Assembly (NCBI GenBank): GCA_002440965.1
Contig: DJWJ01000031.1
Location: forward strand, 6,348-70,347
Length of the DNA stretch: 64,000 nt
Origin: Candidatus Omnitrophica bacterium UBA6233
GTDB taxonomy: Bacteria; Omnitrophota; Gorgyraeia; Gygaellales; Profunditerraquicolaceae
Reading direction: 5' to 3'
Below, piece by piece: positions 1 through 9,547 of this stretch (the first letter of the stretch is position 1; each line of letters starts with the position of its first letter). A model generated the notes under the pieces. The model did no database searches. It was not told where the DNA came from and saw only the letters and a program-made list of their open reading frames with translations. Both the position numbers and the translations under genes were made by a program.

Positions 1-79
1 GATGATACGATAAAAGTCAAATAAAGTTGGTGAAATGCTCTGGATTATCGGTATTATGACCATAGTCTGGAGTAGATAG

Positions 80-248
80 GTTATAGGTTGCATTCGCTTG
101 TTGGGGCTTGACCCCGTTAAGGAGATTAACTTTAGCACCTATAATCGAATAGTCACCATAGGGCTTGACCCTGAATAGGAGAATGGTGTTCACCGACTCA
201 TAATTCTACTCCGAGACGAGGCAGGTAACATAACAAGGGGAGGGAGTT
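80..248 (+). ncRNA. Putative IS110 bridge/seek-type ncRNA in the non-coding left end (speculative)
   Basis: About 170-nt non-coding left end upstream of the recombinase gene. Contains two 22-nt imperfect direct repeats (104-125, 161-182). Segment 199-215 is reverse-complementary to the element's right end (GGAGTAGAATTAT at 1288-1300). Confidence 0.25.
104..182. repeat. Two 22-nt imperfect direct repeats GGGCTTGACCC(C/T)G..A(A/T)AGGAGA
   Basis: Read directly from sequence: 104-125 and 161-182 are 19/22 identical. Confidence 0.6.
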
Positions 249-1274
249 ATGGGGAGAATGATCGGGGTGGATTTACACAAGAATAGCTTTACCATCTGCA
301 GCTACAAGTCTGAAGATGACTATAAGCTAAAGACGCATAGAGTGAGCCCGAAGGGAATTGAGGCGTTTAAGGCAAGTCTCACCAGGTATGACGAATTAGC
401 AGTAGAATCAACCGGTAACACAGCATTCTTTGTAAGAGAAGTAGAATCGAAAGTAAAGCGGATTAGAATCGTTAACCCGATACAGTTTAAGGTTATCTCA
501 AGCTCGGTAAAGAAAACAGATGAAGCAGACGCTTTGACCATAGCGCGGTTTTTAAGCAAGGATATGATACCTGAGGTAAGGATGCGCACAAAAGAACAGT
601 CGCAGATAGCGTCACTGATTGGCACCAGGGACAAATTCGTGAAGCTGCGCACGGCGCTGAAGAACAAGATACATAATATTCTAAATGCTAACGGGATCGT
701 AACTAAGCCTGAAATGTTTACTTCAGAGAAGGGCTTCGAGAAGATAGCGGCTATTGAATTGGAAAGTTCTTATCGGTTTGAAGTTGATCTGATCGTTGGC
801 CAGATACGGAATTTGAATGAGGCGGTGGATAAGATTAATGATGAGCTTAAAGCCAGGGGCCAGAATATCGATGGCCATAAGAACCTTACCAGCATCAAAG
901 GCATCAGCGATATCGGCGCTACGATATTCCTGAATACCATTGGGGATATTAACGATTTTAAGAGCGATAAACAATTAGCAGCATACTTTGGCATAGTGCC
1001 GCGGGTATATGTGTCGAATAATACAGCGCACTATGGACGCATTACCAAAATGGGTAATAAGATTGCCAGGACTGCTTTGGTGCAGTCAACGTTGGTTGCG
1101 ATAAGGTATAGCCCGTATTTAAGGCGTTTTTACGATAAGCTTAAAACTAAGAAAGGCAGTGGTAAGGCGATTATTGCTACTTCTCGTAAGATGTTAGGGA
1201 TAATTTACAATACTTTAAAGAATAACTGGATATTTGAAGATTTTACACAATTTAAGTTAGTAGGGTGTGTATAG
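249..1274 (+). CDS. IS110-family DEDD transposase/recombinase
   Basis: N-terminal MIGVDLHKNSF... is the typical IS110/IS116/IS902 RuvC-like N-terminus. C-terminal Tnp domain (GIG...ATIF..IGD). 341 aa. GGGGAGGG RBS upstream. Confidence 0.8.
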   Translation: MGRMIGVDLHKNSFTICSYKSEDDYKLKTHRVSPKGIEAFKASLTRYDELAVESTGNTAFFVREVESKVKRIRIVNPIQFKVISSSVKKTDEADALTIARFLSKDMIPEVRMRTKEQSQIASLIGTRDKFVKLRTALKNKIHNILNANGIVTKPEMFTSEKGFEKIAAIELESSYRFEVDLIVGQIRNLNEAVDKINDELKARGQNIDGHKNLTSIKGISDIGATIFLNTIGDINDFKSDKQLAAYFGIVPRVYVSNNTAHYGRITKMGNKIARTALVQSTLVAIRYSPYLRRFYDKLKTKKGSGKAIIATSRKMLGIIYNTLKNNWIFEDFTQFKLVGCV

Positions 1275-1326
1275 GTGCGCATACTGGAGTAGAATTATTT
1301 GACTTTTAACATAGGAGGCGAAGGCT

Positions 1327-1881
1327 ATGGCATATCGAAGCGGAACATACGTTGCTTTTTATGCAGAAGGTAAAACTGAACCAGACGAAACAGATATGAA
1401 ATACTATAATTTACTGCAAGCTTGGGATAAGAATAAGGCTTTTGATTTCTCTTTTGTTAATAGTCATGAAAAAGCTAGCGCCGTAAGAGATACGAGCAAA
1501 AAGATTACATTGGAAAATACCTTGAAAGAGCGGTTAAGAAACTCAAAAAATATGATTTTAGTTATTGGTAAGACAACGAGGTTAGATAGGGACTGGGTTC
1601 CGATGGAGATAGAATATGCGGTAGAAAATTGTAAAATTACCATTATTGCAGCTTATCCAGGATACTTAAATATCCGGGCTCCTCAGCAACTTTCTTTGTT
1701 ATGGCCTACTGCGCTTAAGGAACGAATCGAAAATAATACTGCTCATGTGATCCACATTCCGTTTAGAGAGAAGCCGATTATTGATGCAATTTCGCAATTT
1801 GACTATAACAAATTCCCAAATGGTGGCGGGCTAGGGCATTATAATGATGATGCCTACAGGAGCTGGGGGTTGTTAACCTGA
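1327..1881 (+). CDS. TIR-like domain protein (DUF1863/MTH538 family, ThsB-like)
   Basis: YVAF N-terminal strand, and DWVPMEIEYA with a conserved Glu in the catalytic position of TIR/ThsB-like NADases. 184 aa. AGGAGG RBS. Confidence 0.55.
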   Translation: MAYRSGTYVAFYAEGKTEPDETDMKYYNLLQAWDKNKAFDFSFVNSHEKASAVRDTSKKITLENTLKERLRNSKNMILVIGKTTRLDRDWVPMEIEYAVENCKITIIAAYPGYLNIRAPQQLSLLWPTALKERIENNTAHVIHIPFREKPIIDAISQFDYNKFPNGGGLGHYNDDAYRSWGLLT

Positions 1882-1997
1882 GGACAGTAAAGTTAAGTAA
1901 TATAGATTTACTGTCCCTAAGTTAGTTAATTATTAAGGCGGTATAAAATGGGTACTGATGGCAAAAAATAGTTACTCTGATTCAAGAATTTCATAAG

Positions 1998-2873
1998 TTG
2001 CCCGAGCATGCTCTTTATAAGTCACTAACCGGTTTTAACATTTCTCACTATATATTTAATAAAAACTATTCAGAGCTTCTAAAAATTATAGAATTTATAA
2101 CTAATAACCCAGAGTCTGAATGCTTAATGGACATACGAAATCGCGATCAATTAAATAAGATATTCGAGGAGGTAATTAGATTAATTCACAATTTTGTAGC
2201 ATCAGCAATATCATTAGTTGATCACACAAGAAACATATATAAAAAATTATATAGTTCCAACGGGGAATTTCCTGATTATCAAGACCGGATTAATGTTGAG
2301 TTTGCTAGCGATCCGCTAGTTCAGTTTGTCCACTGTCTCCGCCAATATTGCCAGCATTATCGAGCACCGGATATTTCATTACAGGTTTCTTTTACCGGTG
2401 GAAAAATGAAAAAGACAGTAAATTTACTAAAAGAAGATTTAAGAATATTTGACTCATGGAATGCAACTGCAATAAAGTATCTAGATTCAATTAAAGAGCG
2501 TGTAGATGTATATGAATTAATAACCATATATCATAAAAAAGTACTAGATTTTCATGTTTGGTTTAACTCCAGGCAGAAAGAAATCCATAAAATAGAGTTT
2601 GATTTGTTAAGAAAAAAAGAAGAAGAGCTTTTAACGGCACAATTGGATCATTTTTTAGATACGGCTCTTTCTATCAAAGAAAAATCCAACAGTGGAGAAG
2701 TAGACATATTTTACGGTATTTTTAATTCCAGAGATTATAAGGAATTAAGCGGTATGCCTATGAATGAACCAAAGCGATGTGCAAGAGCGATTGAATTAAT
2801 CGAAATGCACCTTCCTGTTTCTGATAACATAAAAAAGAAAATAAATGCTTGGTATAAAAAACAAAGCCAATAA
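1998..2873 (+). CDS. Hypothetical protein (predicted mostly alpha-helical), TTG start or internal ATG at 2127
   Basis: 291-aa ORF in a very AT-rich segment with no recognisable motifs. Tightly packed with flanking genes. Confidence 0.45.
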   Translation: MPEHALYKSLTGFNISHYIFNKNYSELLKIIEFITNNPESECLMDIRNRDQLNKIFEEVIRLIHNFVASAISLVDHTRNIYKKLYSSNGEFPDYQDRINVEFASDPLVQFVHCLRQYCQHYRAPDISLQVSFTGGKMKKTVNLLKEDLRIFDSWNATAIKYLDSIKERVDVYELITIYHKKVLDFHVWFNSRQKEIHKIEFDLLRKKEEELLTAQLDHFLDTALSIKEKSNSGEVDIFYGIFNSRDYKELSGMPMNEPKRCARAIELIEMHLPVSDNIKKKINAWYKKQSQ

Positions 2874-2895
2874 AACTACAGGGAAGGAGAATACT

Positions 2896-3531
2896 ATGAG
2901 AGCTATTATTGCGATTCATGGAATCAGGAGCAATAAAAAGGATAATTGGATTTACAGTTTTTGTGACTTTGCTAAGGCCGATCTTCGTTTTCAAGGAGAT
3001 GTTGTCCTGCCTTATTATTACGGATTTTTACCTGCTATAGATAGTGTTAATGGATTTGATCGACTTAGGTTTATTCGCGGATTTATGAAGTTTTTACGAG
3101 GTGTTAAAAGTGATTATCCACAAGCAGACCTTAATATTGTTGCGCATAGCTATGGTACAGAAATAAGTTTTCAGGCCATAAAAAGAAGTGGGGAAGACAG
3201 TGTGAAAAAGGGGCCGATTTTGGTTAATAAGCTTATCCTAGCGGGTAGCATTGTTTCTGCTCATAGAGAGATTCCTTACGCTGATACACTTCGAGCAGGA
3301 AAGATTAAAGAAATGCATTGTTACTGTAGCTATGAAGATGAGGTTTGCCGATATAATCCTTTCGGGCATTCAGGTTGCTTTGGATTCCTGAAGCACGTAC
3401 ATGATCCTGTTTGTTATCCAAAACCTTTTGATGATTTAAATATTTTTAATCATCAGACAAATACTCTGGAGCATTGTGATTATTTTACAAAGCAATATGA
3501 ACAAAAATGGCTTGATATCATTGCTAAATAG
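2896..3531 (+). CDS. Small alpha/beta-hydrolase-fold protein (putative esterase/lipase-like)
   Basis: AIHGIRS N-terminal strand, nucleophile elbow VAHSYG (GxSxG-like), later Asp/His candidates. GGAGAA RBS before ATG 2896. The track ORF begins earlier at 2845 in frame. Confidence 0.5.
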   Translation: MRAIIAIHGIRSNKKDNWIYSFCDFAKADLRFQGDVVLPYYYGFLPAIDSVNGFDRLRFIRGFMKFLRGVKSDYPQADLNIVAHSYGTEISFQAIKRSGEDSVKKGPILVNKLILAGSIVSAHREIPYADTLRAGKIKEMHCYCSYEDEVCRYNPFGHSGCFGFLKHVHDPVCYPKPFDDLNIFNHQTNTLEHCDYFTKQYEQKWLDIIAK

Positions 3532-3575
3532 GAAAAAGGTGCCAATTCATTACAATAACATAAAGGAGTTTAATA

Positions 3576-4874
3576 ATGCCTAAAAAGAAAGGGTTAGCAA
3601 AAGAAATATTGAAAAGTAATTTACGAAATAAAAAAGTATATTATTATGTTGATTCCGAATCTGGCATTAAAATAAAAAGTAGGGAAGTTTTTAAAACTTC
3701 TTCAAAAACGATTCAGTTTCCCTTTTGGCCTAACGATGGAAAACCCAAGTATCCCTCGATAAGAAAAGTAATTTGTGAAGGTCTGCCTGAGCCTCTTCCT
3801 AGGGGTTTTTATAAATCTTATACAAAAGGGTATGGTTTTACAAGAGAGTTCAACCCTATAATTTACTACTTAAATAACTCCTTTCCCCAAATAACAACAG
3901 TTATTGTATCGAAAAGTGCTAAAAGTCGCTTCGTTGATAATAGAAAAGTTATTTTTAATCTTAAGGATTTTGAGAATGCCATTCCTCAGGTAGCCTTTAT
4001 GTTGGGCAATCATAGAGAACAAAAGGATTGTTTAGCAAATGACATTCTTTCAAAAATGTTTCCAGGAAAATTTACAGCTAAAGCTACAAAATATCAAAAA
4101 GGGCAATTAAATGCTTTTATCTCGCAGCATTCACTAAAACCAGACGAGCTCTCGAGTGAAGATGTCAAAAGTATTTCCTCTCTTTTTGCCTCGTTACCCT
4201 CAACTCATGAATTCATAAAAAAGAAAGGCATACTATCTACTAAAGAATCTGTCGACAGAATTTTTATTGAAGATATTCTGCAGAGATTTAATGATCTGTA
4301 TTCCCAAAAAACAGAAAGTCAAACCCTGGAGAATAAATGGCAGGAATTTTTTAAAGATAATATTTTGTATTTTAACTTTGGATATGTTGATTTTTTTGAA
4401 AAAAGTAGAATACAGGGTGATATTTCTACTGAAATTCCCGATTTTACAATACTAAATATTTATGGATATTTAGATGTATTCGAAATAAAAACGCATTTGA
4501 CAAAGCTTTTAAGTTTTGATTCCCAAAGAAAAAATTTCTATTGGACCTCAGAAGCAAGTAGGGCAATTTCACAAGCAGAAAATTACATAGATGCTATTAC
4601 AAAAGAAGAGTTAAAAATATGCAAAAACATATTGGATGAATATAGCTATAATATTAATGCAGTTCGTCCAAAAGTTTATATCATTGCAAGCTCAAGAGAC
4701 AAGTTAGCTGGAAGCAAGACTTTAAAATACCAAGGTAAACTTAAGAGGAAACTAAATAATGATTTTAGGCGGTTAAATAATTCGCTGAAAAACATTACTT
4801 TTATTCTTTATGATGAACTATTAGAAGTATTTCAAAATACACTAAAAAGGTTGCAATTAAAGAATGCAGAATAA
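3576..4874 (+). CDS. Shedu-like (DUF4263) PD-(D/E)xK nuclease-domain protein
   Basis: C-terminal PDFTIL...DVFEIKTH...QAENYID...KVYIIASSRD fits the D-(E)xK-Q-Y motif and the end of the DUF4263 nuclease. N-terminal 270 aa of unknown function. Confidence 0.45.
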   Translation: MPKKKGLAKEILKSNLRNKKVYYYVDSESGIKIKSREVFKTSSKTIQFPFWPNDGKPKYPSIRKVICEGLPEPLPRGFYKSYTKGYGFTREFNPIIYYLNNSFPQITTVIVSKSAKSRFVDNRKVIFNLKDFENAIPQVAFMLGNHREQKDCLANDILSKMFPGKFTAKATKYQKGQLNAFISQHSLKPDELSSEDVKSISSLFASLPSTHEFIKKKGILSTKESVDRIFIEDILQRFNDLYSQKTESQTLENKWQEFFKDNILYFNFGYVDFFEKSRIQGDISTEIPDFTILNIYGYLDVFEIKTHLTKLLSFDSQRKNFYWTSEASRAISQAENYIDAITKEELKICKNILDEYSYNINAVRPKVYIIASSRDKLAGSKTLKYQGKLKRKLNNDFRRLNNSLKNITFILYDELLEVFQNTLKRLQLKNAE

Positions 4875-4979
4875 ACAATCATGATAATTTACTAGAATGG
4901 CATTGAAATAGAGCAATAAAACTGACATATTTCAATTGTAAGATATTCTCCGAAAAGAAGTAAAATGGGGAGGGAGCGA

Positions 4980-5123
4980 ATGAAGAAAGTCAGATATGTT
5001 TGTAAAAAATGTGGTCACAAGTTTGTAGCCGAAGTCTTTGAACTAGGAGAAGCAGAAGAAAAAAGATTGCCTACAAGACCAGTTCTATGTGAAAGATGCG
5101 GAGGACCCGTAGAGAGATGCTAA
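4980..5123 (+). CDS. 47-aa Zn-ribbon miniprotein (CxxC...CxxC)
   Basis: GGGAGGGAG RBS 6 nt upstream of ATG. CKKCGH...CERCGG are two CxxC pairs. Not in the ORF track because it is under 60 aa. Confidence 0.35.
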   Translation: MKKVRYVCKKCGHKFVAEVFELGEAEEKRLPTRPVLCERCGGPVERC

Positions 5124-5235
5124 ATTTATTTGATAAACTGCTACTCGTTGGCGTGGCTTGATTAGCAATAAGGTCTATTTTTATTACATTTTTGTCTTAA
5201 AATATATATAATATTTGTATGGACGGGAAAGATAT

Positions 5236-6126
5236 ATGAATCCAGAAATTATTTATACAAACTACAGAGATGAGGCGTTTGCAGAAAAATTTTCTGCAGA
5301 TGCTTATTTTTCTTTCGTAGCAATGCCTTTAGCGGACCATTTTAGTTATCATCCAAAAGAGGTTTTACAAAAAGTTATTCAAGAAGCAGCAAATTCTGCA
5401 AACAGAGAGCGGACAGGAGAAATCAAACAATTTTTATCACCTGAGACTGCTTTGGAAATACCAGGAACAGCTAACGTTATTACAGAGGATATTGTTAAGA
5501 AGATTCTAAGTTCGCATTTTTTTATAGCTGATTTAACAGGAGGAAATGCGGGAGTTTTGATTGAAACCGGTATTGCAATGGCATTTAAATCAAATTCTCA
5601 GATTATTCTTGTTACTCAACATTCCTTGAATGAGTTGCACTTTGATATTAGAAATAATCGAGTTATCTCTTACAATCCAAATGGGAACGTTGACGAAATT
5701 AAGAAAGCACTTTTATTTGCTGCTGGAAGTTTAGAAGAAGACCGGAAGAAATATGTAACACAGGTTTCCAATGGGCTTACTATAGATGCAATTCGCACCG
5801 TTCATTTTTATGCTCAAATTTACCAGAATCCTCAGGTGGAAGCAGGTCAACCAGGTCTTTTCGGGAAATGGGATAAAGAAAGACGATTACAAGGCAATAT
5901 ACCGGAATTTTTTAAAGGAGATTATGGCGAGGATGCTATTCTAATGTTCCAGTTGACTATGCAAGAATTATTAAAGAAGCGCCTTTTTTGGACAGATTAC
6001 AAAAGTCAGCTGGAGGGAGGTGTTGAACATCACGGCTGGGCAGCTCATTTAACGCGACTTGGATGGTTGTTGGTCAAGAATCTTTGGCCTCACTATAAGT
6101 CTGATTATTGCCATCGTTTAAATTAA
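5236..6126 (+). CDS. Nucleoside 2-deoxyribosyltransferase-like (Rossmann/TIR-related) domain protein
   Basis: IADLTGGNAGVLIETGIAMAFKSNSQIILV resembles the PF05014 core with a catalytic Glu. 297-303 aa depending on start (ATG 5215 or 5236). Confidence 0.35.
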   Translation: MNPEIIYTNYRDEAFAEKFSADAYFSFVAMPLADHFSYHPKEVLQKVIQEAANSANRERTGEIKQFLSPETALEIPGTANVITEDIVKKILSSHFFIADLTGGNAGVLIETGIAMAFKSNSQIILVTQHSLNELHFDIRNNRVISYNPNGNVDEIKKALLFAAGSLEEDRKKYVTQVSNGLTIDAIRTVHFYAQIYQNPQVEAGQPGLFGKWDKERRLQGNIPEFFKGDYGEDAILMFQLTMQELLKKRLFWTDYKSQLEGGVEHHGWAAHLTRLGWLLVKNLWPHYKSDYCHRLN

Positions 6127-6128
6127 AA

Positions 6129-6169
6129 AGAATAGCATTTAGAAACGCGCTATTCTTTCTCCTTTTCTC
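6129..6169 (+). terminator. Rho-independent terminator
   Basis: Stem AGAATAGC (6129-6136) / GCTATTCT (6149-6156), 12-nt loop, T-rich tail TTCTCCTTTTCTC. Confidence 0.5.
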
Positions 6170-6427
6170 AAAACTGTGCCATTTCCAAATACCCTGTATA
6201 CAGAGAGTTTTTCTGCCGCGCCGTATTTCTGGGCGTCCTTACTGAGTTCACCTCTTATTGACTATTTTATGATTTCCAGATTTTCTAATTTTTTATAATA
6301 AATAATGTTGTAGAAGAGTTTTTCTGGAGTAAAATATGAAAAAGATGTGTTACGTATTACCAACAGACAAGGTTAATCAGTTAGGAATAATGGAGTCATT
6401 TTTTTATTTCGACAACACTTGATAAAA

Positions 6428-7231
6428 ATGGAAGCCAATCAATTTACAGAATATTTAAAATCACTTTCTGCAGAAATGCAGGTAACTAAGGATCGAATTC
6501 GTTTACTCATAGGTGATAGACATTGGCAAACAGACGGTGAACATAAGGAAGCCATCTTGCGGAAAATGATTCGTTCAGTAATCCCGAGCAAATTAAGTAT
6601 ATGTAGAGGGTTTATGGTGAATCATTTACAAGATGGTACGGGACAAATTGATATTCTTATTCTTGATCGTTTGAATAAACCCGTCTTGTTTCAGGATGAT
6701 GAATTAGTTATTACAACACCTGATTGTGTTAGAGGAATAATTGAAGTTAAAACTAGGATTAATAGTGCTACGGAACTTGACGAAATATTATTGAAGATGA
6801 GCGATTATCTAGAGTTTCAGAAAAAGTATTCCGATATTGCTGCTTTTGGTGGACTATTTGTCTATGAAGATTCAGCGATATCTAATGAAGATGTATTAAA
6901 AGCTCTATATGAATCTGCCAAGAAGGATCAAGCGCGTGCGGTTAATTGGATGAGTATAGGATTAGATAGATTTTTTAGATTTTGGCCAAACGAATTGAAC
7001 CCTGCTGCTAAGATAGGGGGAGATTCCTTCTGGCATTCTTATGAACTTAGAGATTTGTCGCAAGCATATTTTATTAGTAATGTTATGTGGGATGTATCTA
7101 AGCAAGGTATAAATAGCCTATTTAGCGTGGAACGTGCAGACAAGGTTTGGTTTCCTTTACCCGAAGGAAAGGAATTCTATAAGAATGGTTCTATAGGCCT
7201 AAATAGCGGAATAGTTGATTTTAGTCATTAA
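6428..7231 (+). CDS. Predicted PD-(D/E)xK-fold nuclease-like protein (hypothetical)
   Basis: QIDILILD ... IIEVKT gives a D..(E)xK spacing typical of restriction-endonuclease-like folds. The track start TTG 6419 is in frame with ATG 6428. Confidence 0.35.
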   Translation: MEANQFTEYLKSLSAEMQVTKDRIRLLIGDRHWQTDGEHKEAILRKMIRSVIPSKLSICRGFMVNHLQDGTGQIDILILDRLNKPVLFQDDELVITTPDCVRGIIEVKTRINSATELDEILLKMSDYLEFQKKYSDIAAFGGLFVYEDSAISNEDVLKALYESAKKDQARAVNWMSIGLDRFFRFWPNELNPAAKIGGDSFWHSYELRDLSQAYFISNVMWDVSKQGINSLFSVERADKVWFPLPEGKEFYKNGSIGLNSGIVDFSH

Positions 7232-7259
7232 ATGGGCTCTGGCTTAATTTATCATTGTT

Positions 7260-8400
7260 CCTACTGTGTAATATTTAGTTGGTAAATTACTCCCAATAAT
7301 AATGTTTTATCATCCCGCCTAGTCGAGATTGACATTTAATCCTGCCTTTAGTTTTCCCCGGACTATACCCTAAAGGTTCATTGTTTACACCCGAATGTGG
7401 CCTTTTAGTGTTGTAATGACCTACATACTCCCGAATCAGGTATTTTAAGTGCTCTTCCCCAAACACGAAAAAATGATCCAAGCACTCGCGCTTAATGGTT
7501 CCAACAAACCCTTCAGCATAAGGGTTAAGGTTAGGAGAACGATAAGGGATTCTTTTAACCTCGGCATTATGTGGTTTAAATAGTTCATCAAACTCTTTAG
7601 GAAATTTTGCGTCGCCGTCCCGGATAAGAAGCTTCTTAGTTCTATCCTTAAAGATGAAAGAGAGGCTCTTTGTGGTATCGACTACCCATTTTTTATCTGG
7701 CTTTGTGGTAATCCCAGCTATATGTACCTTGCGAGTCCTGATATTAATAAAGAATAGCACATGGAATATCTTTGGCCCCAAGGCAGTCCATACTGTCTTG
7801 GTGAAGAAATCACAGGCCCAGAGAGTTTCAAAGTGTCTTTTGATGAATGCGTCCCAGGAATCTTCCTTGCGTTTAGGAGATGGCTCAATGCCGTTTCTAA
7901 GCAGGATTAACTTTATGGCGCTCCGGGATAGCCTTGAGATATTGAGCTTCTTTAACTCAGCCAAGATCCTACCATAGCCCCATAGTTTATTCTCTTTGGC
8001 CATGCGGACAATGAGATCAACGATCTCCTGCATAGTTTTCCTGGGTCTGCCACGTTTGAGCTGTTTACTAGTCACGCCTTCTGCTGCCCATCTGCGGAAA
8101 GTAGAGTAACTTACTATAGATATAATACTTTTGATCTGTCCGCGCAAAGGCAGGCCATATTTGATGAGCCTACGTTTTTCAGATGTAGTAGTGGTAATCC
8201 TTTTAGGTAGCTTAGAGCGCAGGATTTCGTTTTCAACTTTCATGTATTCAATTTGGCGGATAAGATTAGAATGTGTCATCTTCCCCAAGAGTCCCAAAAA
8301 CTCTTGGAAAAGGGTGCCGTTTATGGTATAAGATTTAGTGAAGTCCATTGGTTTTCTCCTTTGAAAAGTTAATGGATGAAATTAGTAATTAACCTTATGT
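7260..8400 (-). mobile_element. IS element carrying the rve transposase (boundaries approximate)
   Basis: Single transposase ORF. Weak imperfect IR candidates TGGTAAATTACT (about 7279) and AGTAATTAACC (about 8388). Ends not confidently defined. Confidence 0.3.
7287..8348 (-). CDS. DDE transposase, integrase-core (rve) domain, IS481/IS3-like
   Basis: N-terminal HTH region, central D..D..E integrase core (DFT...WACDFF...PYAEGF), C-terminal ...HYNTKRPH typical of rve transposases. 353 aa. Confidence 0.75.
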   Translation of the reverse strand: MDFTKSYTINGTLFQEFLGLLGKMTHSNLIRQIEYMKVENEILRSKLPKRITTTTSEKRRLIKYGLPLRGQIKSIISIVSYSTFRRWAAEGVTSKQLKRGRPRKTMQEIVDLIVRMAKENKLWGYGRILAELKKLNISRLSRSAIKLILLRNGIEPSPKRKEDSWDAFIKRHFETLWACDFFTKTVWTALGPKIFHVLFFINIRTRKVHIAGITTKPDKKWVVDTTKSLSFIFKDRTKKLLIRDGDAKFPKEFDELFKPHNAEVKRIPYRSPNLNPYAEGFVGTIKRECLDHFFVFGEEHLKYLIREYVGHYNTKRPHSGVNNEPLGYSPGKTKGRIKCQSRLGGMIKHYYWE

Positions 8401-8934
8401 TTTGCTACCGGTTAGGACATAGTTTCACTCGTTATTTGACAGGTCTCATAATTTCTGTACCCCGCTGGGAGCAAAAAGCCATAAAATCGCCAAATTCCCT
8501 TCAAAAATTCTCACTTTTTTAGGGCTGATTTTTGGTGGTTTCTTGGCGTTTAGTTTGGCATTTAGTTAAGGCGCGGGGCCAATGAAGCCCAGGTGCTTTA
8601 GAGAGCTAAGAACCATATTTAAGTGCTCTTTTAAATCAGCAAGTGATATGTCTCTAACACCAATGTCCGGACAAATAAGGGTGGACAAACCTATCTCCTA
8701 ATAAATCAAAGAGTTAGGGAAATTAGAGACAAAAATAACCGGACAAATAAGACATTTTTTGCGAGGGAAAACCTCTCTAAAGACGAAATTTCCCTTCTTA
8801 TTGGCCATAAATCCGATATAATACATACTAGCAATAGTGAGAGGTTCCACCTCGGCAAACCGGAGTGGGACCCCAATTTCTATTTCCTCGGTTCTCGACG
8901 ATGGAGTCATTCCCAACAATTTTATTTATTCTTG

Positions 8935-8962
8935 TTGACTTATTGCAAAAATGTGCTACCAT
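8935..8962 (+). promoter_or_regulatory. Candidate sigma70 promoter for the cold-shock gene (long 5' UTR)
   Basis: TTGACT (8935-8940), 16-nt spacer, extended -10 TGcTACCAT (8954-8962). Would give an approximately 170-nt leader, as in cspA-type genes. Confidence 0.3.
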
Positions 8963-9136
8963 AGTTTTGTAGTAAAGATTAGAAGTCTTAGGCCGTGAGG
9001 ATTAGGAAACTAACCTTGCGGTTTTTTTATCGCTGTCATTGTTTGTCCGGTTAGAGTTAGTAGAATCTATCAGATGAAAGTGAGGCGGATTTCTGAAAGA
9101 TTTTACTATAATTATAAGAAAAGGAGGTAACAAGCA

Positions 9137-9337
9137 ATGGTAAAAGGATCAGTAAAGTGGTTCAGCGATCAAAAAGGTTATGGTTTTATCACGCCGGAGA
9201 ATGGTAAGGATGTGTTTGTGCATCATTCATCTATTCAGGGTGAAGGATACAAATCTTTAGCTGAAGGTCAGCAAGTCGAGTTTGAAATCGAACAAGGACC
9301 TAAAGGTGAACAGGCGACTAAGGTCGTCAAGTTATAG
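9137..9337 (+). CDS. cspA: Cold-shock protein (CspA family)
   Basis: [34 protein letters not shown] has RNP1/RNP2 motifs. 66 aa. AAGGAGG RBS. Confidence 0.9.
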
Positions 9338-9350
9338 CCTAAAAAAACGA

Positions 9351-9389
9351 ATAGGGTTCGGCATTAACAGTGCTGAACCCTATTTTTTC
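9351..9389 (+). terminator. Rho-independent terminator after cspA
   Basis: ATAGGGTTC (9351-9359) / GAACCCTAT (9375-9383), 15-nt loop, followed by TTTTT (9384-9388). Confidence 0.65.
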
Positions 9390-9409
9390 ACTTATAAGGA
9401 GTAATTAAA

Positions 9410-9547
9410 ATGAATAGCTGTATGAGATGCGGGGAGAGATTAGCGCATAATTACCTGGTAACGGTATTTACGCTCGTAAAAGAAGAAAGAAAAAGAATGA
9501 TTGTGTGTTTGAAGTGCAGGGAAGTCTTAAACAAACAGCTAAAATGA
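9410..9547 (+). CDS. 45-aa CxxC...CxxC Zn-ribbon miniprotein
   Basis: AAGGAG RBS at 9395-9400. MNSCMRCGE...CLKCREV. Overlaps the start of the next ORF. Confidence 0.3.
   Translation: MNSCMRCGERLAHNYLVTVFTLVKEERKRMIVCLKCREVLNKQLK

Follow-up and report, generated by a model that had tools for sequence, protein, structure and literature searches.

The open reading frame (ORF) at positions 3576-4874 on the + strand of a 64,000-nucleotide stretch of Candidatus Omnitrophica bacterium UBA6233 DNA (contig DJWJ01000031.1; the whole stretch is referred to here as the window) is clearly a real and intact gene of a Shedu (SduA) nuclease. We consider it highly probable, at roughly 0.88, that this gene, sduA, encodes a stand-alone type-1 Shedu immune nuclease located in a defence island flanked by insertion sequence (IS) genes in a Candidatus Omnitrophota genome. 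The 432-aa product is a member of the Shedu family in which the catalytic set is complete, the nuclease core has the Shedu fold and the architecture comprises three parts; its gene lies in a defence-island context and has no conserved partner. The gene and its parts are the following:

3563..3568, + strand: ribosome-binding site (RBS) AAGGAG of sduA, 7 nt before the ATG, read from the sequence
3576..4874 including the stop codon, + strand: sduA, gene of the predicted type-1 Shedu immune nuclease, 432 aa (ORF list, Pfam, PADLOC, identical NCBI proteins)
3576..4070, + strand: putative sensor/regulatory domain at the N-terminus, residues 1-165 (AlphaFold2 model of the isolated domain, family conservation)
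3828..3845, + strand: top-conserved motif of the N-terminal domain, G85-Y-G87-F88-T-R90, after L74-P75-x-G77 (67-sequence alignment)
4071..4319, + strand: helical linker, residues 166-248 (AlphaFold2 secondary structure: helices 177-185, 194-205, 212-215 and 218-242)
4320..4871, + strand: DUF4263/SduA_C PD-(D/E)xK nuclease domain, residues 249-432 (alignment to 8ps4, profile to 8ti8, Foldseek to 8ti9)

An earlier note, made from the letters of the window, had described the product as a Shedu-like DUF4263 nuclease of the PD-(D/E)xK type, and this was borne out by hidden Markov model (HMM) and profile searches, by the catalytic residues and by the fold. The HMM search that the note had proposed matched the Pfam family SduA_C (PF14082, DUF4263) to residues 251-416 over model positions 3-159 of 159, with 73.6 bits (E=2.6e-20) against a curated cut-off of 27 bits. 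In PADLOC, 13 models matched and all of them were SduA models, the best being PDLC00384 (E=8.7e-23, residues 67-421). The single sequence searched against the PDB sequences retrieved solely Shedu proteins, E. coli SduA 8ps4 with E=5.8e-6. With the profile of the 67-member family, B. cereus Shedu 8ti8 was found with E=2.3e-30 and 8ps4 with E=6.2e-20, in alignments that begin at about profile position 219-225 and thus comprise only the nuclease domain and the preceding helix. Identical proteins from Candidatus Omnitrophota are deposited at NCBI as MDD5680375.1 ("DUF4263 domain-containing protein") and MFA5062813.1 ("Shedu immune nuclease family protein"). The Shedu assignment is correct but already public knowledge. 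The length of 432 aa is near the mean of type-I Shedu proteins (386 aa). Homologues of sduA have a patchy occurrence among phyla (Omnitrophota, candidate-phyla-radiation bacteria, Nanoarchaeota, Bacillota and Proteobacteria), and the phage collection searched gave no match.

All six catalytic residues identified by mutagenesis in E. coli SduA (E226, Q230, D269, E283, K285 and Q314; Loeff et al., bioRxiv 10.1101/2023.08.10.552762) are present in the window protein, and they are invariant or nearly so in the family. All 67 members of the family alignment have D289, K305 and Q333, and at least 90% of them have E303. The corresponding predicted catalytic codons are these:

4329-4331, + strand: E252, aligned with E. 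coli SduA E226
4341-4343, + strand: Q256, aligned with E. coli SduA Q230
4440-4442, + strand: D289, aligned with E. coli SduA D269
4482-4484, + strand: E303, aligned with E. coli SduA E283
4488-4490, + strand: K305, aligned with E. coli SduA K285
4572-4574, + strand: Q333, aligned with E. coli SduA Q314

The C-terminal motifs D289, E303-I-K305 and Q333...Y337 and the KVYIIASSRD block were confirmed where they had been placed before; the counterpart of the block, P365-KVYIIASSRD, in the alignment with E. coli SduA is PKAIIIVGRD. The full-length AlphaFold2 model, built with 67 homologues, has a mean predicted local distance difference test score (pLDDT) of 88.1. Comparison of this model with the PDB by Foldseek, the structural check that had been proposed against SduA structures, gave significant matches to Shedu proteins exclusively, with probability 1.0 for 8ps5, 8ps4, 8ti9 and 8ti8. 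The top match was 8ps5 (E. coli SduA, E=1.8e-11), and the core superposed on B. cereus Shedu 8ti9_B with a template-modelling (TM) score of 0.77, normalized to the target, and a root-mean-square deviation of 3.3 A. The first match outside the family, a nickase, appeared only at E=4e-3. E. coli SduA (8ps4/8ps5) has the same type-1 layout as the window protein and is its best full-length structural match, and B. cereus Shedu (8ti8/8ti9; type 1A) is its strongest profile match in the nuclease domain.

The layout of type-1 Shedu proteins was found in full: an N-terminal domain (residues 1-165), a helical linker (166-248) and the DUF4263 domain (249-432). The N-terminal region had been noted before as a single unrecognisable domain of 270 aa. 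It has indeed no Pfam match, but it really falls into a basic, compactly folded alpha/beta domain of about 165 aa and a four-helix linker of about 83 aa. The position of the linker matches those of the linkers in B. cereus Shedu (118-170, likewise four short helices) and E. coli SduA (146-188). Modelled alone by AlphaFold2, the N-terminal domain reached a pLDDT of 91.9 and a predicted TM score of 0.85. In the model, a four-strand beta-meander (9-47) is followed by a beta-beta-alpha-beta-beta-beta-alpha core and one more helix. The predicted elements are strands 9-15, 19-26, 31-39, 44-47 and 64-68, helix 93-102, strands 108-112, 118-120 and 124-128, and helices 129-143 and 147-161. The domain is basic (isoelectric point 9.9; 31 Lys and Arg vs 14 Asp and Glu). 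Of the richness in Lys and Asn that had been attributed to the N-terminal half, the Lys part was right (13.9%), whereas Asn, at 6.7%, is as frequent as in the whole protein and therefore not enriched. The best-conserved positions are K19, P75, G77, G85-Y-G-F-x-R90 and P163; in the 67 sequences G85 is invariant and G87, F88, P75 and G77 are found in at least 90%.

This N-terminal domain differs in sequence from those of the two studied Shedu types, which were represented in the sequence comparisons by plasmid-borne relatives from Priestia (72% identical to B. cereus Shedu) and Paraburkholderia (74% identical to E. coli SduA), both identities being taken over the nuclease domain. The two relatives fall into PADLOC subfamilies PDLC00399 (Priestia) and PDLC04067/00388 (Paraburkholderia). 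The profile of the N-terminal domain scored about 0 bits on both of them with hmmsearch, and hhalign gave probabilities of 0.7% for the Priestia (B. cereus-like) and 0.1% for the Paraburkholderia (E. coli-like) domain. The DNA-end clamp of E. coli SduA (residues 1-145) is unrelated to the window domain also by Foldseek, 8ps4 and 8ps5 being absent among the 50 best PDB matches of the domain alone, and its end-stacking Trp25 has no demonstrable counterpart in the window protein. For the B. cereus domain, one sPC4/Whirly beta-beta-beta-beta-alpha unit of 117 aa has been predicted; since the domain is disordered in the deposited structure, the comparison with it was by sequence only, and the window domain showed no similarity to the Priestia relative. 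Foldseek, the PDB profile search, hmmsearch and hhalign gave no support to a kinship of the domain with either the E. coli clamp or the B. cereus type. No PC4, Whirly, MRP or PurA structure was among the 50 best Foldseek matches, in a comparison of monomers. Such monomer comparisons overlook the sPC4/Whirly fold (Gu et al.), and the four-strand meander at residues 9-47 may be a remote resemblance to the sPC4/Whirly domain.

Relatives of the domain are numerous. Its profile, run against 1.84 billion cluster representatives, matched 252 clusters, defined at 50% identity, with E<=1e-3, and 111 of these with E<=1e-10. In nearly all of the clusters, and in matches of 390-465 aa, the domain is at the N-terminus, and all three proteins of that length which were scanned carry SduA_C; the shorter matches resemble contig fragments. 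Fusions of the domain to other effectors were not seen; the sole 1405-aa match (P0221) is spurious, the protein being an insect-allergen repeat protein. The carriers come from Omnitrophota, Levybacteria, Saccharibacteria, Nanoarchaeota, Elusimicrobiota, Anaerolineales, Gracilibacter, Bdellovibrionia and Gammaproteobacteria. Among known systems the closest are a 416-aa Shedu of the cultured Thalassospira profundimaris (NZ_JPWH01000024.1) and a 517-aa Shedu encoded by plasmid pRlX1 of Rhizobium beringeri (NZ_CP140808.1), the latter a clear member of PDLC00384 (2e-147; 490 bits). Both have the same architecture as the window protein and a homologous N-terminal region. The Thalassospira protein matches profile positions 18-164 (41.4 bits, hhalign 97.1%) and the Rhizobium protein columns 61-169 (40.7 bits, hhalign 97.2%), although their overall identity to the window protein is just about 24-25%. 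The motif LPxGF...GYG(F/V)T(R/K) and the linker are common to all three; in the Rhizobium protein the counterpart of the conserved motif reads 'LPGGFVQDPTYGLGVTKEL'. The similarity to the Thalassospira protein includes the first 66 or so residues, with the beta-meander. No counterpart of these residues was detectable in the Rhizobium protein, in which the common core is preceded by a longer stretch of unrelated sequence and which has an acidic C-terminal tail.

In the Thalassospira genome (L096, 2189-6057), the Shedu gene of this class is preceded by a gene for a 441-aa protein on the opposite strand and followed, 51 nt downstream, by a gene for a 277-aa protein with two C-terminal CxxC...CxxC zinc ribbons.

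The strongest competitor on this point, which we nevertheless consider quite unlikely, is that the N-terminal domain has a truly new sensor fold beyond all catalogued Shedu classes, making the protein a new variant with a new trigger. Foldseek gave the confidently modelled domain no match at E<=1e-3, either in the PDB (best E=0.44, TM<=0.23) or among the viral folds of BFVD (best 0.21), its profile has no match among PDB sequences, and Pfam recognizes no family in this part of the protein or of 38 relatives. Against this, the domain alone matches the PADLOC model PDLC00384, a SduA model of 2023, with E=1.4e-8 over residues 66-139, and the domain with the linker does so with E=1.4e-14, the core of the domain and the linker aligning over residues 67-246. 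The homology to the two RefSeq proteins of Rhizobium and Thalassospira points the same way. Moreover, Gu et al. sorted 7,687 Shedu homologues into 79 clusters of N-terminal domains, 59 of them novel, and reported among them the folds NRF1 and NRF2, which have no PDB homologue, and an unclassified class 1X; relatives of the window domain were already in NCBI before that survey. The core of type 1B (NRF1) was described there as beta1-beta2-alpha1-beta3-beta4-beta5-alpha2 with a basic cavity formed by two helices, and the order beta-beta-alpha-beta-beta-beta-alpha of residues 64-143 fits it, in a comparison with the verbal description only. The earlier suggestion of a new sensor variant thus stands weakly: the domain is unlike those of the E. 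coli- and B. cereus-type relatives and has no significant fold match in the PDB, but it recurs in 252 clusters and shares homology with catalogued proteins. It is therefore a recurrent, uncharacterised class that Shedu catalogues already include, and not new. As the fit to PDLC00384 is limited to model positions 108-454 of 476 (79 bits, far short of the 490 bits of the Rhizobium protein) and leaves the first 66 residues uncovered, the window protein would be best described, on the sequence comparisons, as belonging to a sister group related to PDLC00384 rather than as a member of it.

The proposed mode of action of the type-1 Shedu nuclease follows from the two enzymes studied so far. Removal of the N-terminal domain or the linker makes both of them toxic (Loeff et al.; Gu et al.), and the N-terminal region is therefore regulatory. 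By this analogy, the C-terminal DUF4263 PD-(D/E)xK domains of the window protein most likely assemble into a homotetramer, and the N-terminal domain with the helical linker would keep the nuclease inactive. The basic N-terminal domain would bind an infection-associated cue, most likely a nucleic-acid structure. Binding would free the presumably Mg2+-dependent site formed by E252, Q256, D289, E303, K305 and Q333, which may then nick or cleave invading DNA and so provide anti-phage activity.

Several points weigh against this reading or restrict it. E. coli SduA becomes a nickase once it has sensed a DNA end (Loeff et al.), whereas B. cereus Shedu makes double-strand cuts after octamer assembly; the two studied enzymes thus differ in mechanism, and the cutting mode of the window protein therefore cannot be inferred from them. 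The promoter and terminator scans found sites no more frequent than expected by chance.

A small gene follows sduA on the same strand, 105 nt downstream:

4980..5123, + strand: 47-aa CxxC...CxxC zinc-ribbon gene, GGAGG RBS 6 nt upstream of the ATG

The earlier note had pointed out this ORF and its RBS, both of which were found as described, and had taken it for a possible accessory of the nuclease. The ORF is a real gene, because its homologues at two other loci (L089 and L090; 83% and 87% identical) keep all four Cys and the ratio of nonsynonymous to synonymous substitution rates is 0.16-0.28. If its product were the DNA-binding or regulatory partner in a two-component Shedu, it would have a precedent in KELShedu of E. 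coli, in which KELA (12.6 kDa) accompanies the likewise DUF4263-containing effector KELB (PMC12577705). The common strand, the distance of 105 nt and the fact that the terminator scan detected no terminator between the two genes speak for such a pair, and CxxC-bearing ORFs lie downstream of Shedu genes in 5 of 85 loci of other genomes vs about 2.3% of background ORFs.

The comparison of homologous loci nevertheless makes the two-component explanation very improbable. Among 86 loci, a homologue of the zinc-ribbon gene follows the Shedu gene only in this genome, and a tblastn search of 84 loci with the peptide gave no match outside copies of that genome. The closest Shedu homologues (66-70% identity; L085-L088), like nearly all the rest, lack it downstream; at the three closest loci the next downstream genes are unrelated and encode proteins of 156, 211 and 93 aa. 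Its own homologues adjoin unrelated genes with no Shedu nearby: at L089 a 56-aa ORF on one side and a GmrSD-like gene on the other, with a caspase-helicase gene upstream, and at L090 a 138-aa ORF, which the homologue precedes. The DNA similarity to these loci (about 82-83% nucleotide identity) is confined to window positions 4955-5131 (L089 4009-4160; L090 133-312) and stops at the borders of the ORF, and the GC content of the ORF is 0.42 vs 0.305 in sduA. The five downstream CxxC proteins of other loci are of differing kinds and sizes. KELA, in turn, has its gene upstream of that of the nuclease, with a 3-bp gap and translational coupling between the two, and is needed for defence, whereas the zinc-ribbon gene is downstream, separated by 105 nt and not conserved with the nuclease. 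A role as Shedu accessory is therefore rejected, and the zinc-ribbon gene is an independent neighbour, not a component of the Shedu system. A role as accessory of the TIR-like gene that follows it (296/303 aa) is rejected as well, four loci with 55-91% homologues of that gene having no zinc ribbon upstream. Judged from the sequence comparisons, the gene behaves as a small self-contained gene that would move between variable regions.

The same gene order, Shedu, zinc ribbon and TIR-like, was seen at one other locus (L073, 385-5471), where hsdM and hsdS are followed by a distant Shedu (27% identity, 371 aa), a 50-aa zinc ribbon and a 315-aa TIR protein. This order is a further point in favour of a two-component system; the zinc ribbon there is 33% identical to that of the window, and the TIR protein shares no homology with the TIR-like protein encoded in the window. 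Within the window, a cold-shock-domain gene (9137-9337) is followed by a 45-aa CxxC...CxxC ORF (9410-9547; the pair spans 9137-9547), to which the zinc-ribbon peptide had a weak tblastn match (32% identity, E=0.57).

The gene sduA is situated inside an island of about 8 kb (window 249-8348) flanked by transposase and integrase genes. Besides sduA and the zinc-ribbon gene, the island contains:

249-1274, + strand: IS110-family transposase gene, island boundary
1327-1881: ThsB-like TIR protein gene (PADLOC ThsB1, E=1.8e-64)
1998-2873: gene for a 291-aa protein, no PADLOC match
2845-3531: gene for a 228-aa protein resembling an alpha/beta hydrolase, overlapping the 291-aa gene, no PADLOC match
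5215/5236-6126: gene for a 296-303-aa TIR / nucleoside 2-deoxyribosyltransferase-like protein (PADLOC 'Effector TIR' 8.2e-6; Pfam Nuc_deoxyrib_tr 0.033)
6419-7231: gene for a 270-aa DUF6602/NucC-like nuclease (Pfam 4.9e-19; PADLOC PD_DExK 3.1e-22, NucC 2.4e-12)
7287-8348, - strand: rve-type integrase gene, island boundary

The GC content is 0.30-0.36 over positions ~2000-7000 vs ~0.37-0.44 elsewhere in the window. The neighbours of sduA homologues differ in every locus examined, with no conserved partner gene, and Gu et al. describe a strong association of Shedu genes with defence islands and transposable elements. The least probable of the alternatives is that the product serves not as an immune effector but as a nuclease of housekeeping or of a mobile element, for example in repair, like NucS/EndoMS, or as a restriction endonuclease. 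In its favour, EndoMS/NucS is the nearest structural neighbour of the Shedu nuclease core beyond the Shedu family (Gu et al.), and sduA is positioned between two transposase/integrase genes. The significant sequence and fold matches, however, are all to Shedu, and the patchy spread across phyla with different defence neighbours at each locus is the pattern of a mobile defence gene, not of core repair.

No recognizable ThsA was found beside the ThsB-like gene, and the genes at 1327-3531 could constitute a Thoeris-like system with a non-canonical effector. The 296-303-aa protein has a weakly TIR/deoxyribosyltransferase-like N-terminal half and a C-terminal half without a recognized family. Its homologues form 59 clusters, and the few that are named by source come from Omnitrophota, one of them from Candidatus Velamenicoccus archaeovorus. 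Because this last homologue is 91% identical to the 296-aa product, the organism appears related to Candidatus Velamenicoccus archaeovorus. The gene stands alone in a different context in four of the four loci examined, once inside a type I restriction-modification operon (L114). Directly after it lies the gene for the 270-aa DUF6602 protein, which has a NucC-like PD-DExK N-terminal domain and no adjacent cyclase gene; the two genes could be a pair of signal producer and effector.

In the same genome, the DNA shortly before the window and its IS110 element (L001, 3681-6419) encodes three more proteins with a probable role in defence, of 349 aa (TIR_2), 398 aa (unassigned) and 142 aa (ThsB_TIR), and the IS110 element may have been inserted into a larger TIR-rich island. 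The Rfam scan of window positions 1-9500 found nothing. The GC skew is positive in all 1-kb bins of window 1-64000 and its cumulative value climbs to 10.9, so that all of the window seems to belong to a single replichore in which G strongly outnumbers C on the + strand.

Beyond the correct annotation, the significance of the gene is small: it is one more Shedu nuclease in an Omnitrophota defence island. What value remains is in the class of the N-terminal domain, with its ~250 clusters, its confidently predicted fold and no solved structural relative. The structure or the ligand of any member of the class, for example that of the cultivable Thalassospira or of Rhizobium, would reveal how a third type of Shedu sensor works. 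A more speculative proposal, which we regard as rather doubtful, is that the domain, with its beta-meander and its GYGFTR-bearing alpha/beta core, represents a Shedu sensor class whose fold and trigger are unlike both the DNA-end clamp and the sPC4/Whirly domain with its octamer activation and, separately, that the zinc ribbon is encoded by a small mobile gene travelling between defence islands with a regulatory or anti-defence function. If this were true, the Omnitrophota, candidate-phyla-radiation and DPANN carriers of the domain would sense a different infection cue by means of Shedu.

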